64,000 nucleotides of DNA from Escherichia coli. GTDB taxonomy: Bacteria > Pseudomonadota > Gammaproteobacteria > Enterobacterales > Enterobacteriaceae. The notes under the pieces are model-generated. The model was not told where the DNA came from and did not search any database. It worked only from the letters and a program-made list of their open reading frames with translations. The translations under genes were made by a program, and so were the position numbers. Numbering within the stretch: the stretch's first letter is position 1; the number at the start of each line of letters is the position of its first letter. The stretch lies in NCBI RefSeq assembly GCF_003334305.1, contig NZ_QOWS01000004.1; one strand, given 5' to 3'. Shown here piece by piece: positions 50,771 to 55,923 of this stretch.

Positions 50771-51790
50771 TTACCTGAAAGCAACAGTAGCCATAGCTAA
50801 CGTCGTGTCGAGCATTCGGTTAGCAAAGCCCCATTCGTTATCGCACCAGACCAACGTTTTGATCAGGTGTGCGCCACTGACCCGGGTTTGGGTGCCATCG
50901 ACAATGGCACTGTGCGGATCGTGGTTAAAATCTACAGAGACCAACGGCAATTCCGTATAGTCAACTATACCATGAAATGCACCTTGTGCTGCTTTTTGCA
51001 GCAACAGGTTGACTTCATTGGCTTTTACAGGTTTCTTCACCGTCACGCTTAAATCGATTGCCGTCACATTTATGGTTGGCACACGTACCGCAATCGCTTC
51101 AAAGCGATCGTTAAATTGCGGAAAAAATCGTGTGATACCGGCGGCCAGTTTAGTATCGACCGGAATGATCGACTGGCTGGCTGCCCGGGTGCGACGCAGG
51201 TCAGGATGGTATGCATCAATAACCTGTTGATCGTGCATGGCGGAGTGAATTGTGGTCACAGTGCCGGACTCAATACCGTACGCATCATCTAACAATTTGA
51301 TGACGGGAATTATGCAATTCGTGGTACAGGAAGCGTTAGAAACGATGCGGTGTTCCGCACGAAGTTGATCCTGATTGACGCCGTAAACAACGGTCGCGTC
51401 GAGATCGTTACTGCCAGGATGTGAAAAGAGCACTTTTTTGGCCCCGGCGGCAATATGCGCTTCGCCATGCTCGCGGGAGCCATATACGCCGGTGCAGTCG
51501 AGGACTACATCAACGCCAAGTTCACGCCAGGGGAGCGATTGCAGTGAACGTTCATGCAATACGCGGATGGCGTCATCACCAACAAAAAGTTGATCGCGTT
51601 CCTGTCGTACTTCCCATGCAAAACGGCCATGGCTGGTGTCATATTTCAACAAATGCGCCATGCCCGCAGCATCCGCCAGTTCGTTGATTGCCACCACGGT
51701 AATTTCCGCCCGGCGTCCGGATTCATACAAAGCACGAACCACATTACGCCCGATGCGACCGAAGCCATTTATCGCTACGCGTACGGTCAT
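50771..51790 (-). CDS. epd: D-erythrose-4-phosphate dehydrogenase
   Basis: ORF 50771..51874; start [15 protein letters not shown] at 51790 gives 339 aa; GAPDH-family NAD motif NGFGRIGR. Confidence 0.92.
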
Positions 51791-51911
51791 AGATCTCCTG
51801 CAAGGTTTTCCCTGAGCAAATTTGCCAGACAGAGTAATCCAGCAAATCGTCCGGGGAAACCTTACCTGTCGCAAACTGCGACTGATTGGTTAATTGTCGA
51901 ACATTTAATCG

Positions 51912-51927
51912 ACTGAAACGCTTCAGC
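51912..51927. promoter_or_regulatory. Candidate Cra (FruR) operator upstream of epd
   Basis: ACTGAAACGCTTCAGC is a near-perfect palindrome of the Cra half-site TGAAAC, about 120 bp upstream of the epd start. Confidence 0.4.
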
Positions 51928-52017
51928 TAGGATAAGCGAAACGTGGAATAAAAGGAATGATTGTCCAGTCAAAGAAAGCAATTATCTGACTTACGTCACG
52001 TTTTCAGCCCCGCCCCT

Positions 52018-52033
52018 GTGGAATTTATTCCAC
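52018..52033. promoter_or_regulatory. Perfect 16-bp palindrome in the epd / ECF-operon divergent control region
   Basis: GTGGAAT-TT-ATTCCAC; an additional GTGGAATAAAAGGAATG half-site-like repeat lies at 51943-51959. Confidence 0.35.
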
Positions 52034-52161
52034 TTTGCAGAATCACGAATAAGCGTAGCAAAATCTTTTCGTTGTGCCGTCACAAACCCTGACTTATATC
52101 AGAATATGACTGATGCAGCGTCGATATTATCCGCAATACGTCCGAGTTTCGGAGTACTCCA

Positions 52162-52593
52162 ATGATGACATTGCCCTACCCATATTCTTCCTCCGCACGC
52201 TTTTACGCACTGCGCCTCCTCCCCGGGCAGGAAGTTTTTTCCCAGCTACACGCTTTTGCACAGCAGCATCAACTTCATGCCGCCTGGATTGCAGGCTGTA
52301 CCGGTAGCCTGACTGACGTCGCCTTGCGCTATGCCGGGCAAGAAGGCACCACGCTCCTGAACGGTACATTCGAAGTGATCTCACTAAACGGCACGCTGGA
52401 ACAGAGTGGTGAGCATCTTCATCTCTGCGTTTCCGATCCACACGGCACGATGCTTGGCGGTCATATGATGCCCGGCTGTACCGTGCGGACCACGCTTGAA
52501 CTGGTGATCGGTAGCCTTGAGGAACTGGCGTTTAGCCGCCAACCTTGCGCGCTTTCTGGTTACGACGAGTTGCATATTTCCCCCGTTAAATAA
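52162..52593 (+). CDS. Small cytoplasmic protein, tentatively PPC/DUF296-like
   Basis: 143-aa ORF with GGAG RBS 8 nt upstream; no TM segments; pattern LRLxPGxEV...GSL..V.LRYAG....LNGTFEVISLNGTL...HLHL.VSD..G...GGHMMPGCTV.TTLELVI resembles the DUF296 fold. No match to a K-12 protein that I know. Confidence 0.55.
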   Translation: MMTLPYPYSSSARFYALRLLPGQEVFSQLHAFAQQHQLHAAWIAGCTGSLTDVALRYAGQEGTTLLNGTFEVISLNGTLEQSGEHLHLCVSDPHGTMLGGHMMPGCTVRTTLELVIGSLEELAFSRQPCALSGYDELHISPVK

Positions 52594-52615: not shown

Positions 52616-53194
52616 ATGGCGCGTAGCCACTTTTCCAGTCAGGCACTGGTGTTGATCGTTATATCTATCGCCATCAATATGATCGGCGGGCAACTGGCCA
52701 GCATGGTCAAATTACCTATATTTCTCGACTCCATCGGCACACTTATTAGCGCGGTACTGCTTGGTCCGGTGATCGGAATGCTGACCGGCTTACTGACCAA
52801 TTTACTCTGGGGATTGCTGACCAACCCGATCGCCGCCGCATTTGCACCCGTCGCGATGGTCATCGGCCTGGTCGCCGGTTGCCTGGCGCGAGCGGGTTGG
52901 TTTCGCACCCTGCCAAAAGTCGTTGTCAGCGGCGTGATTATTACGCTTGCGGTAACGGTCGTCGCTGTACCGCTGCGTACTGCGCTGTTCGGCGGTGTCA
53001 CCGGTAGCGGAGCCGATTTGTTCGTTGCCTGGATGCACTCGATGGGGCAAAACCTGGTGGAGTCGGTGGCGATTACGGTGATAGGCGCGAACCTGGTCGA
53101 TAAAATTCTTACAGCGGTGATTGTCTGGCTTTTACTGCGCCAGCTGCCGATTCGCACCACGCGCCATTTTCCGGCAATGGCTGCCGTGCGCTAA
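52616..53194 (+). CDS. ECF transporter substrate-capture (S) component, substrate unknown
   Basis: ORF 52517..53194; start MARSHF at 52616 behind an AAAGAGG RBS gives 192 aa with about six hydrophobic helices; its stop overlaps the next start (TAAATG). Confidence 0.6.
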   Translation: MARSHFSSQALVLIVISIAINMIGGQLASMVKLPIFLDSIGTLISAVLLGPVIGMLTGLLTNLLWGLLTNPIAAAFAPVAMVIGLVAGCLARAGWFRTLPKVVVSGVIITLAVTVVAVPLRTALFGGVTGSGADLFVAWMHSMGQNLVESVAITVIGANLVDKILTAVIVWLLLRQLPIRTTRHFPAMAAVR

Positions 53195-53902
53195 ATGCAT
53201 CCATTTACCTCATTAACACTGTGGGCATTGGCGGCCTGCACCACGCTTATCCTGCCCGCGCAGACCATTTTGCCAATCTATAGCGCGGCGACCTTTTTCT
53301 GCCTTATTGCGCTAAAGGCCACGCGGCGGCGGGCAAAATATGTCGTCTGGCTGATGTTCTCGCTGGGAGCCGGGCTGTGGCTGGTACACGGTGGCTGGCT
53401 ACCAGAATGGCTAAGCGGCACGCCACGCTCGCCAGAACGGTGGTCGCATGCTATTACGCTCTGGTTGCGGATTCTGGCGATTGTTTCAACCTCACAGTTG
53501 TGGATGCAGTACGTCCCCGTGCAATGTTTTATTCGCGCTCTGTTTGCTTCTCGCCTGCCGCCAGGCGTCGCTTATCTGTTTGCCGGGCCGTTATTGGTCG
53601 TTGAGCAGTTAAAACGGCAATTAGCGATTATTCATGAAGCGCAGCGTGCCCGCGGCGTGCCGCTGGATGAGGGCTGGTATCAGCGTTTACGTGCGATGCC
53701 CGCGTTAATTATTCCGCTAACACACAATGCGCTTAACGATCTGGCTGTCCGTGGTGCGGCGCTGGATATGCGGGCATTTCGGATCCACAACCGACGAACA
53801 ACGTTGTGGGCACCAGCCGATAGCACCCTACAACGCGTAGCGCGTTACACCATGATCTTGCTGATGCTGACAGAATTCGGAGCGTGGATATGGTTACGTT
53901 AG
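53195..53902 (+). CDS. ECF transporter transmembrane (T) component, EcfT/CbiQ family
   Basis: 235-aa polytopic protein with two Ala-Arg-Gly coupling-helix motifs (EAQRARGVP, LAVRGAAL). Confidence 0.65.
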   Translation: MHPFTSLTLWALAACTTLILPAQTILPIYSAATFFCLIALKATRRRAKYVVWLMFSLGAGLWLVHGGWLPEWLSGTPRSPERWSHAITLWLRILAIVSTSQLWMQYVPVQCFIRALFASRLPPGVAYLFAGPLLVVEQLKRQLAIIHEAQRARGVPLDEGWYQRLRAMPALIIPLTHNALNDLAVRGAALDMRAFRIHNRRTTLWAPADSTLQRVARYTMILLMLTEFGAWIWLR

Positions 53903-54567
53903 AACAGTTCCGTTATTGCCCGACACACTCAACGCATCCTCCGTTCTGTTATGACTTTCACTATGTCAAACCGGGGATGGTCGCCATCTTTGGTGACAAC
54001 GGCAGTGGCAAAAGTACGCTGGCACAGCTGATGGCGGGCTGGTATCCGGACTTTCTGCCAGGAGAGATAACAGGCACGGGGACGCTCCTCGGTACGCCCA
54101 TTGGGCATCTCCCGCTTAATGAACAATCCGCCACCATCCAGCTCGTCCAGCAATCGCCCTATTTGCAGCTCTCCGGCTGTACCTTTAGCGTGGAAGAAGA
54201 AGTTGCCTTTGGGCCAGAAAATCTGTGTCTTGCTGAAGCAGAGATTTCGGCGCGGATTGATGCCGCCCTGACTCTGACCGAGTGCCAGCCGTTGCGCCAT
54301 CGTCACCCGGCAACACTCTCCGGTGGAGAGACACAGCGCGTGGTCATCGCCTGCGCCATCGCGATGCAGCCAAAGCTCTTAATTCTTGATGAAGCCTTTA
54401 GCCGCCTGACTCCGCAGGCCAGCGAAATGCTGTTGCAGCGCTTACAACACTGGGCGTTTGAACGTGGTTCGCTGATTATTCTTTTTGAACGTCATCGCAC
54501 ACCTTTCCTGAACTACTGCCAGCAAGCGTGGCAATTGAAAAACGGAGCGCTCCAGCCACTATGTTAA
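53884..54567 (+). CDS. ECF transporter ATPase (A) component
   Basis: 227-aa ORF with Walker A GDNGSGKST, signature LSGGETQR and Walker B LLILDEA; its start overlaps the T-component 3' end. Confidence 0.75.
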   Translation: MDMVTLEQFRYCPTHSTHPPFCYDFHYVKPGMVAIFGDNGSGKSTLAQLMAGWYPDFLPGEITGTGTLLGTPIGHLPLNEQSATIQLVQQSPYLQLSGCTFSVEEEVAFGPENLCLAEAEISARIDAALTLTECQPLRHRHPATLSGGETQRVVIACAIAMQPKLLILDEAFSRLTPQASEMLLQRLQHWAFERGSLIILFERHRTPFLNYCQQAWQLKNGALQPLC

Positions 54568-55238
54568 CGTTAAATAAGATATCTTATCGCTGGCCTGGCG
54601 CGGCAACGGATTGTCTTTGCGACATTTCTCTGCAACTCAAACAAGGTGAATGGTTGGCGCTGACCGGCGACAATGGCGCGGGAAAATCGACGCTGTTACG
54701 AGTAATGGCAGGTCTTCTTACGCCCACAGCCGGTACGGTTATGCTGCAACAACAGGCGATGAAAAACCTGAAAAACCGCCAGCGCGCGGCAAAGGTTGGC
54801 GTACTGTTTCAGGAAGCGGAAAACCAACTTTTTCACAGCACCGTCGCTGACGAGATCGCATTTGGTTTGAAACTGCAAAAATGCCCGGCGGATGAAATCA
54901 CTCAACGTACCCATGCTGCCCTGCAATGTTGTCAGTTAGCAGACACTGCCAACGCGCACCCGTTGGATCTGCATAGTGCGCAGCGACGGATGGTCGCCGT
55001 CGCCTGCCTGGAAGCACTCTCTCCGCCACTATTGCTGCTGGACGAGCCGAGTCGGGATTTTGACGAAAATTGGTTGAGCGTGTTTGAAAGCTGGCTGGAG
55101 AAGTGCCGCCAGCGAGGCACGAGCGTCGTAGCAATCAGTCATGACGCCGCATTTACCCGGCGTCATTTCTCTCGTGTGGTGCGACTGGAAGATGGTCTAA
55201 TCAGGAACGTTAATCCACCAGACGATATTCACCCGTAG
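54561..55238 (+). CDS. ECF transporter ATPase (A') component with degenerate signature motif
   Basis: ORF 54528..55238; likely start MLTLNKISYR at 54561 (ATGTTAA overlap with the upstream stop). Walker A GDNGAGKST, Walker B LLLLDEP, H-loop SHD; the signature position reads LHSAQRR instead of LSGGQ. Confidence 0.7.
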   Translation: MLTLNKISYRWPGAATDCLCDISLQLKQGEWLALTGDNGAGKSTLLRVMAGLLTPTAGTVMLQQQAMKNLKNRQRAAKVGVLFQEAENQLFHSTVADEIAFGLKLQKCPADEITQRTHAALQCCQLADTANAHPLDLHSAQRRMVAVACLEALSPPLLLLDEPSRDFDENWLSVFESWLEKCRQRGTSVVAISHDAAFTRRHFSRVVRLEDGLIRNVNPPDDIHP

Positions 55239-55923
55239 CGGTCATCATTAAGGTCAAATTTGCAGGCAGACTCTCTTCCAGCACCCGGCGAACATTCGGC
55301 CCGTCGGTACGGTCATAAAAAGCTTCTGCGTCTGCCAGCGATACCCCTCCCGCCAGCTTGCGCCCTACCAGTCGTTCCCGCAACGCAGTAGCTGGCGCGT
55401 TGATAAAGATCGAGAAATCACAAAATTGCGCAAGCTGGCACCACTTCTCGTCGTCCAGCAACAACCAGTTTCCTTCGACGATGACGAGTGGTGCGGTAAC
55501 GTGCAACGCATCTTCAACAGGATCATGCTTTTGTCGATCATACTGCGGCCACGTACAATCCCCTTCCACGACCTGGCACAGATTTTCCGCCAGTTTCGCA
55601 ACGTCAAATGTCTCTGGTGCGCCTTTGAAGGGGCGCAATTGATGCGCATCCAGCCAGCTATTGTAATGGTGAAAACCATCCATCGGGAGCGTCTGGATAG
55701 CGGGTAATTCAGGGTCTTGTTGCGCGAGATATTCCCAGAAGGTAGTTAAGGTAGATTTACCCGTCCCCGGCGGAGCGCAAAGAAAAACCACCGTACGTCG
55801 CTGCGGACTTACCGTCTGTAAGGCCGCCAGCATACGCAGCAACGGTTTATGCACGCGTTCTATCTCTTCATCATGGTACTGCACTTGCACGTTCAGCCCA
55901 TTCACCGTTAATTCAATTTTCAC
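55210..55923 (-). CDS. yggC: P-loop kinase-like protein YggC
   Basis: 237-aa ORF with Walker A APPGTGKST; its 3' end overlaps the convergent ECF A' gene by 29 bp. Confidence 0.88.
   Translation of the reverse strand: MKIELTVNGLNVQVQYHDEEIERVHKPLLRMLAALQTVSPQRRTVVFLCAPPGTGKSTLTTFWEYLAQQDPELPAIQTLPMDGFHHYNSWLDAHQLRPFKGAPETFDVAKLAENLCQVVEGDCTWPQYDRQKHDPVEDALHVTAPLVIVEGNWLLLDDEKWCQLAQFCDFSIFINAPATALRERLVGRKLAGGVSLADAEAFYDRTDGPNVRRVLEESLPANLTLMMTATGEYRLVD

Follow-up and report, generated by a model that had tools for sequence, protein, structure and literature searches.

The 64,000-nucleotide stretch of Escherichia coli DNA analysed here, referred to below as the window, carries between the divergent genes epd and lmiA a short inverted repeat, GTGGAATTTATTCCAC (52018–52033; arms GTGGAAT and ATTCCAC, 7+2+7), which is read here, tentatively and with a confidence that falls a little short of even, as an orphan operator-type dyad, TGGAAT-N2-ATTCCA, for a putative dimeric regulator; the repeat belongs to the ancestral control DNA of epd. 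A dimeric-regulator site is suggested because an invariant half-site, a partner half recurring at a single spacing, a displacement of the dyad by one helical turn and a further copy of the motif in the epd core promoter are found together. Gene epd lies on the minus strand (ATG at 51790), and opposite it on the plus strand stands a five-gene cluster formed by lmiA (PPC/DUF296, 52162–52593) and the S, T, A and A' genes of an ECF transporter (52616–55238), identified from RefSeq annotation, NCBIfam matches and, for lmiA, published work (PMC7667037). This cluster is O-island 119 (OI-119) of enterohaemorrhagic E. coli (EHEC) O157:H7, in which z4267 was named lmiA (PMC7667037). The locus is already characterised as OI-119/lmiA; what is new is the conserved orphan motif and its dual position, with the centre of the repeat (52025.5) at -46.5 of the lmiA transcription start site (TSS) and at -103.5 of the epd P0 TSS.

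The repeat had originally been predicted as a perfect 16-bp palindrome, and while its sequence and coordinates are as described, the TT spacer is not self-complementary (the reverse complement reads GTGGAATAAATTCCAC), so that the element is a 7-bp inverted repeat with perfect arms, symmetric at 14 of its 16 positions. Its placement about 130 bp upstream of the first cluster gene is accurate (129 bp separate its end from the ATG at 52162), as is the report of a related repeat about 60 bp further upstream, namely GTGGAATAAAAGGAATG at 51943–51959, at a distance of 59 bp. Within the repeat, the only deeply conserved part is the core half-site TTTATTCCA (52024–52032, reading TGGAATAAA on the minus strand), which contains the right arm; the left arm GTGGAAT (52018–52024, plus strand) falls in the variable spacer between the CRP site of epd and the conserved half-site. 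A second copy of the motif, TGGAATAAA followed by GGAAT (GGAAT-AAAA-GGAAT, 51944–51958, plus strand), occupies the spacer and -35 region of epd P0 at -22 to -36, and a weaker third copy, GAATAA (52047–52052, plus strand), read from the alignment, forms TTATTC-N16-GAATAA around the lmiA -35 hexamer together with TTATTC (52025–52030). Citrobacter and Klebsiella have at the counterpart of 52025–52052 the sequence TTATTCCATATTCCAGAAT, which in the alignment has the heptamer TATTCCA twice in tandem and belongs to a cleaner 28-bp dyad, TTATTC-CAT-ATTC-CA-GAAT-TGC-GAATAA, with its centre in the lmiA -35 region; in E. coli the inner left arm of this dyad is lost, TTTG replacing ATTC.

The repeat is judged to stand above chance because of the uniqueness of the 16-mer, the clustering of the 9-mer and the conservation of half-site and dyad across genera. 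The 16-mer GTGGAATTTATTCCAC occurs once in the window, even when two mismatches are allowed, whereas the 9-mer TGGAATAAA, expected 0.49 times per window, occurs twice in the 64 kb, both times in the epd–lmiA intergenic region, and the 14-mer dyad TGGAATNNATTCCA was found at this position only among 95 fetched loci. Conservation was followed in some 45 enterobacterial epd upstream regions and in an alignment of 36 epd–lmiA intergenic regions, whose conserved blocks are the Cra box, GGAATAAAAGGAAT, the CRP site, TTATTCCA (the right arm of the repeat), CTGAYTTATATCAG, a TATTAT-like hexamer and ACGTCCGAG-N-CTCGGAGT. The columns of TTTATTCCA are invariant or nearly so in all 36, and its flanks vary. 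Measured from the centre of the Cra box, nGGAATAAA is found at +24 in 44 of 45 genomes, the CRP-site centre at +72.5 in essentially all, and TTTATTCCA in minus orientation at +104 to +105 in about 36, four of which have no cluster: K-12, E. fergusonii, Yokenella regensburgei and [Enterobacter] lignolyticus keep it equally far from the CRP site. Franconibacter, Cronobacter, Buttiauxella and Cedecea, which also lack the cluster and have different neighbours upstream, carry TGGAATAAA reversed and nearer to the CRP site (plus orientation, +88). Franconibacter presents the full dyad ATGGAATAAATTCCAT, and Cronobacter, reading TGGAATAAATTCCAC, has the full dyad TGGAATAAATTCCA; the reversed 9-mer is TGGAATAAATGCAA in Buttiauxella and TGGAATAAATGAAA in Cedecea.

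The partner half is less widespread, and its occurrence follows one spacing. When it was scored against GGAAT at spacers of 0–7 nt in 42 genomes, enrichment appeared at spacer 2 only, with a mean of 3.0 out of 5, at least 4/5 in 14 genomes and nine perfect partners, against a single perfect case, with spacer 7, at all other spacings. Such single-spacer specificity would be hard to reach by drift. Perfect dyads recur in four clades (Escherichia; K. grimontii with K. michiganensis; Kluyvera georgiana; Franconibacter with Cronobacter), whose independence was judged by genus membership, not from a tree. The left arm is full in Escherichia and Kluyvera georgiana and reduced to the inner GGAAT in K. 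grimontii and K. michiganensis, two of the three K. oxytoca-group species. If the TSS is taken as fixed relative to the Cra box, the centres of the two versions of the dyad fall 11 bp from each other, at -103.5 and -92.5 of epd P0, and are separated from the CRP centre by 33 and 22 bp, respectively. The phased positions -103.5 and -92.5 are known for upstream co-activators at CRP promoters. The idea of a dimeric transcription-factor operator, put forward in the original prediction, is therefore favoured by the presence of GGAAT-N2-ATTCC in four clades, at a 2-nt spacer only, and in two positions one helical turn apart. Co-loss of both motif copies, which would have pointed to a shared factor, is not clean in Erwiniaceae, Erwinia and Pantoea retaining degenerate versions.

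Within E. coli, the repeat-bearing epd–lmiA junction is found in 3330–3331 of 5426 complete genomes, and a 5.5-kb query spanning the cluster is covered to at least 80% in 3317 of the 5426, OI-119 carriers making up 61% of E. coli. The segment 52004–52048 is identical in 2459 of 3331 repeat-carrying genomes, O157:H7 and Nissle among them. Where the repeat does vary in Escherichia, the changes hit a single arm (GCGGAAT in NC101, TTGGAAT in E. whittamii, ATTTCAC in E. albertii); the core GGAAT-TT-ATTCC stays intact in all of these but E. albertii, and the variants neither support nor exclude selection on the outer two base pairs.

Several observations weigh against a dimer operator. None of the single-arm variants just described is compensated in the other arm. 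When the 371-bp intergenic region was shuffled 2000 times with its dinucleotides preserved, 10.2% of the shuffles produced an inverted repeat whose arms reach 7 bp or more around a spacer of 0–4 nt, and the 64-kb window contains 29 repeats of this class, so that the repeat taken alone, outside its comparative context, is within chance and constitutes weak evidence. One partner position in five comes “free” through its overlap with the conserved TTT, and the counts overstate independence, the genomes being related. There is no conserved left arm in, among others, Citrobacter, Salmonella, Leclercia, Silvania and Atlantibacter, its position reading CGCTAAATTTATTCCAT in Citrobacter and TGCAATTTATTCCAT in Salmonella, and the copy in the epd core promoter may be kept merely as core promoter DNA. 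We know of no transcription factor with this motif, and the motif strings occur in no paper of the searchable literature. Finally, a DNA pull-down with the lmiA promoter found PhoP, and no protein was reported at the repeat (PMC7667037).

In the mechanism proposed, the functional core would be the half-site TGGAATAAA (TTTATTCCA on the plus strand), and a second half-site 2 nt away would complete a dimer site in some lineages, Escherichia included. A dimeric regulator would then bind the helix face that the class I CRP dimer of epd P0 also occupies (-103.5 versus -70.5) or, in Cronobacter-type genomes, with the dyad centred at -92.5, 22 bp from CRP, and would modulate CRP-dependent epd transcription, possibly in cooperation with the TGGAATAAA copy in the epd core promoter (-22 to -30). 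The repeat covers -54 to -39 of the lmiA promoter (PlmiA), filling the 30-bp gap between the PhoP footprint and the -35 hexamer, and for both divergent promoters it lies where activators or co-regulators typically act. Since the -35 hexamer is only 2 bp from the repeat, an occupant would be expected to affect PlmiA, and in OI-119 carriers occupancy of the site would also set lmiA–ECF transcription by helping or blocking RNA polymerase at the position of the -35 hexamer and of the C-terminal domain of the alpha subunit (alpha-CTD), the occupant being either an activator contacting sigma region 4 or alpha-CTD, or a block. Protein binding, the dimeric state and the direction of the effect are what we infer from the sequence itself, from its position relative to published TSSs and footprints, and from the pattern of conservation.

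A wider proposal, possible although on balance doubtful, is that an enterobacterial regulator reads both TGGAAT-N2-ATTCCA and TGGAATAAA, three copies of which would surround the epd CRP site, and that it provides a third input to epd-pgk-fbaA beside Cra and CRP, tying lmiA and the ECF transporter, in OI-119-positive E. coli, to the same metabolic signal. Should a protein bind, the epd-pgk-fbaA promoter (glycolytic, and supplying a pyridoxal phosphate precursor), a textbook case of Cra/CRP antagonism, would gain an overlooked third regulator conserved across Enterobacteriaceae, and the EHEC virulence regulator lmiA, involved in acid resistance and biofilm formation, would be wired to it through a -35 hexamer set against an older epd operator. 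Should no protein bind, the element would be an ordinary short inverted repeat beside a conserved promoter-upstream block. Regardless of binding, the analysis corrects the view of OI-119 as a horizontally acquired island and of K-12 as the ancestral state, both taken up below, and it places the published “PhoP box” on the CRP site conserved upstream of epd.

The alternative to be taken most seriously, possible yet itself rather doubtful, is that only the 9-mer TTTATTCCA is conserved and acts without dyad symmetry, the Escherichia left arm being accidental. The 9-mer could then be a monomer or half-site contact, a place for alpha-CTD docking or a UP-like A/T patch, or, upstream of the CRP site, an element that bends the DNA. 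Such a view accommodates the variability of the left arm in most genera, the uncompensated single-arm changes in Escherichia and the 10% chance rate for a repeat of this kind in the region, and it draws on the location of AATTTATT at -50 to -43 of PlmiA, where alpha-CTD binds. It accounts poorly for a partner enrichment specific to the 2-nt spacer and for perfect dyads in four clades, including the inverted and shifted Cronobacter/Franconibacter version, as well as for a block kept at -103 of epd in genomes with no promoter on the other side. The match of the repeat to the UP-element consensus, which reportedly goes back to Estrem et al. in 1998, also looks poor. A further possibility, in which the repeat has no regulatory role and marks a scar or hotspot of recombination between cluster-plus and cluster-minus haplotypes, is very unlikely. 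It would explain why BLAST homology between K-12-type and cluster-plus sequences ends at about 52011, why K-12 has a degenerate version, GTGGGAAGCTTTATTCCAG, at this very junction, and why the replaced segment extends into yggC (whose last 240 nt are 47–70% identical), with TTTATTCCAG-N27-CTGGAATAAA lying past yggC in K-12 and E. fergusonii. A scar, however, would not be found as a half-site at a fixed distance from CRP in many genera and on both sides of the polymorphism, and there is no integrase, no tRNA and, at the right end of the cluster, no direct repeat.

Two kinds of known protein have been weighed as occupants of the site, and for both the probability is very small. A repressor of the LacI/GalR family (GalR or GalS, for example) is brought to mind by the match to 10 of the 12 specified positions of GTGNAANC.GNTTNCAC in the same 16-bp geometry, and by the presence of GTGGAATC half-sites in the galE operators (PMC5110547). 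Yet both central positions fail (T8/T9 versus C8/G9), position 9 being essential, and all sites confirmed by chromatin immunoprecipitation have a central CG; the ChIP-chip list contains no epd or yggC peak (PMC5110547), although the K-12 strain in which it was made has the degenerate repeat only. Moreover, the conserved half extends as TGGAATAAA, not as a LacI-type half-site ending in C. For LmiA (DUF296), whose binding to DNA has been reported at LEE1, gadA and gadBC, an autoregulatory site would be well placed, the repeat abutting the -35 hexamer of the lmiA promoter. The sole footprinted LmiA site, TTAAAGTCGTTTGTTAA, is unlike the repeat, the motif is present upstream of epd in species without lmiA at the locus, and autoregulation is described in neither of the two LmiA papers, the follow-up paper containing nothing on the lmiA promoter. 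The preferred reading remains a dimer site for a regulator other than these, inherited with the epd control region.

The distribution of the cluster is not that of a recent island. In a survey scanning one genome per species, the order PPC-S-T-A-A' was found at 74 loci, and in about 35 Enterobacteriaceae the cluster is divergent from epd, mostly with yggC beyond it; these include Escherichia, Citrobacter, the Klebsiella oxytoca group, Kluyvera, Leclercia and Silvania, as well as Atlantibacter, Superficieibacter, Trabulsiella, Pseudescherichia and Phytobacter, and Salmonella enterica has the same epd–cluster arrangement. Other contexts harbour the cluster in Proteus, Providencia, Morganella, Budvicia, Hafnia, Aeromonas and one Synergistaceae genome. 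No motif in common with E. coli emerged upstream of the cluster in Proteus, Providencia, Morganella, Hafnia and Aeromonas, where the cluster appears to be controlled differently. The “ECF island” is the published O-island 119 and encodes ECF genes, but the implication of a recent insertion does not stand, given a cluster divergent from epd across Enterobacteriaceae. OI-119 has been described as horizontally acquired, yet the lmiA–ECF cluster adjoins epd throughout this family. Contrary to the initial view of the repeat as control DNA of the island, TTTATTCCA lies upstream of epd in genomes that lack the cluster, and cluster-specific sequence begins to the right of the repeat; the suggested check of inserted versus ancestral origin thus comes out in favour of ancestral epd upstream DNA. 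The PPC gene always accompanies the transporter genes, and the survey suggests a function linked to the ECF substrate rather than to dedicated virulence regulation. The ECF S component matches the NCBIfam CD3073 family below the family cutoff.

K-12-type genomes lack the cluster, and at their junction, where BLAST homology to the window breaks off (~52011), the degenerate GTGGGAAGCTTTATTCCAG is found. Two features rule out a simple deletion in K-12: a 40-nt junction to which nothing in the cluster corresponds, and the divergence of the 3' 240 nt of yggC (window 55210–55450 versus positions 1876–2115 of the K-12 locus), where the haplotypes are 47–70% identical, as against 83–100% in the rest of yggC and in fumE. 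E. fergusonii, also without the cluster, has nearly the same junction, and the K-12 YggC allele is 91–92% identical to the E. fergusonii and E. albertii proteins, as compared with 78–87% to most other E. coli alleles. The K-12 state is a replaced haplotype and not an ancestral order from which only an insertion is missing; both haplotypes seem to be old and to be exchanged through recombination. Where the cluster is present, its second ATPase gene shares 29 nt with the 3' end of the convergent yggC. Next to the yggC stop, K-12 and E. fergusonii have an inverted repeat with perfect 10-bp arms, TTTATTCCAG-N27-CTGGAATAAA (positions 1826–1873 of the K-12 locus), and cluster-less Escherichia thus have three TGGAATAAA copies in a 285-bp spacer.

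On the epd side, the P0 start, 132 nt upstream of the epd ATG (PMC2759082), maps to 51922 on the minus strand. Cra sits over the -10 hexamer and the TSS, and activation by CRP is of class I (PMC5888115). The Cra box GACTGAAACGCTTCAGCT (51912–51929), lying over the P0 -10 hexamer and TSS, is invariant in the alignment. The CRP site TCTGA-N6-TCACG (51982–52003), assigned from consensus and conservation, is centred at 51992.5, that is at -70.5 in the class I position and 33 bp from the centre of the dyad, and is conserved in all compared epd upstream regions, with or without lmiA. Genomic SELEX (systematic evolution of ligands by exponential enrichment) detected a strong FlhDC peak (score 98) in the epd/yggC spacer of K-12 at coordinate 3071934, and epd mRNA is lower in an flhD mutant (PMC9962212). 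Non-motile Klebsiella retain the TTTATTCCA block, which argues against FlhDC as the conserved binder. The centre of the FlhDC peak is presumably about 223 bp upstream of the epd ATG and within about 15 bp of TTTATTCCA, if the coordinate refers, as we take it to, to an older K-12 assembly.

On the opposite side, primer extension in O157:H7 placed the lmiA TSS at a T 90 nt 5' of the ATG (PMC7667037), corresponding to 52072, and the published promoter has its -35 hexamer TTGCAG at 52035–52040 and its -10 element TAGCAAAAT at 52056–52064 (PMC7667037). The DNase I footprint of PhoP, CTTACGTCACGTTTTCAGC, maps onto 51990–52008 of the plus strand, or -82 to -64 of PlmiA (PMC7667037), and TSS, hexamers and footprint are mutually consistent on the window sequence. 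This footprint overlaps the right half of the epd CRP site, where CRP and PhoP would either compete or cooperate; CRP is not discussed in the lmiA promoter paper (PMC7667037). The published “PhoP box” GACTTACGTCACGTTTT (51988–52008) has three mismatches to the PhoP consensus. A different promoter, TTGTGC-17-TATATC, had been proposed downstream of the repeat and is not supported: both hexamers are present (52072–52077 and 52095–52100), but the mapped lmiA TSS is the T of TTGTGC, and TATATC is, in the alignment, part of the separately conserved CTGAYTTATATCAG box. The published lmiA promoter is weak, and a scan for the sigma-70 consensus over 51700–52300 passed no site.

Further downstream, CCTGAYTTATATCAGA (52089–52102), the box to which the TATATC of the proposed promoter belongs, resembles a CRP/FNR-family site and shares its left half with the epd CRP site. 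This box is kept in all 36 Enterobacteriaceae and in Buttiauxella, a conservation deeper than that of the published lmiA -35 and -10 elements, and its centre is 41.5 bp upstream of a predicted start located 7 nt past the conserved TATTAT (52125–52130). This arrangement predicts a second, class II-type lmiA promoter near 52137. Overlapping the lmiA Shine–Dalgarno sequence GGAG, ACGTCCGAGTTTCGGAGT (52137–52154) is near-invariant across genera, mostly as TCCGAG-T-CTCGGA, and may serve as a DNA operator at the proximal start predicted above or as a hairpin that masks translation; it shows no covariation, and as a hairpin it is no more stable than shuffled sequences.

Comparison with established site types sets the repeat apart from most of them. 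That it matches neither CRP nor Cra consensus, as had been noted, is borne out, both being separate conserved boxes (51982–52003 and 51912–51929). Set against the CRP core TGTGA-N6-TCACA, its best register, TGTGG-AATTTA-TTCCA, reaches 7/10, its TGTG is absent outside Escherichia and broken in NC101, and the true CRP site lies 33 bp away. As a Cra box it agrees at 8/16 positions with a consensus of the GCTGAAWC.GWTTCAGC type, the real Cra box being that at 51912–51929. A PhoP box, (T/G)GTTTA-N5-(T/G)GTTTA, is missing from both strands of 52010–52045, the footprint lying upstream of the repeat, and there is no resemblance to the LmiA site TTAAAGTCGTTTGTTAA. Judged by eye against consensus sequences, sigma-54 (TGGCAC-N5-TTGCA), sigma-E (GGAACTT-N16-TCAAA) and NarL 7-2-7 sites, as well as the RcsB box, ARG box, DnaA box, NagC/Mlc, FlhDC box and Lrp sites, fail in spacing or key bases. 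A UP element would fit by position (-54 to -39) and by the 8-nt A/T core AATTTATT, whereas the G/C-containing arms mismatch the consensus, AAAWWTWTTTT..AAAA at -59 to -38. A role as RNA element or terminator is excluded because the repeat is upstream of both mapped TSSs, and no terminator-like site is present; Rfam gave no match at E up to 10 except a chance thermometer match on the epd side, and the lmiA 5' untranslated region (99 nt) is not unusually structured in comparison with shuffles (z = +0.24).

Closer likenesses are found in two families. With LacI/GalR operators the repeat shares a 16-bp hyphenated dyad with TG-AA half-sites (GTGNAAN-/-NTTNCAC) and GTGGAAT arms identical to gal half-sites, and, written as GTGGAATT.TATTCCAC, it matches all ten outer specified positions of the GalR consensus GTGNAANC.GNTTNCAC (PMC5110547). 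It differs in lacking the central CpG, the dyad centre being T.T in E. coli and A.A in Cronobacter and Franconibacter in place of the C8.G9 that GalR requires, and in a conserved extension that is AAA/TTT and not NC. The IclR (TGGAAATNATTTCCA) and AllR (KTTGGAAWAWTWTTCCAAC) operators have in common with it the outer TGGAA/TTCCA half-sites and an A/T-only centre (here TGGAA-TTTA-TTCCA). IclR-family proteins act as dimers or tetramers, often on tandem sites at whole helical turns (PMC8222616), and such tandem sites resemble the motif copies seen here. In the 15-bp IclR and 19-bp AllR boxes, however, 5 nt separate the pentamers, as against 4 nt in every full dyad of this locus (PMC8222616), and an IclR site was rejected on this spacing; no IclR-family gene is situated near the repeat.

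In its placement, the element is reminiscent of tandem-activator class I CRP promoters, in that a class I CRP site lies 33 bp downstream of its centre (22 bp in other genera), with the difference that the second site here is not itself a CRP site. The published architecture of the lmiA promoter (Liu et al., mBio 2020) concerns the same DNA, its TSS, -35 and -10 elements and PhoP footprint all falling within 60 bp of the repeat, but the repeat goes unmentioned there and the region is treated as island DNA (PMC7667037), whereas the present analysis assigns both the repeat and the PhoP/CRP box to the ancestral DNA upstream of epd.

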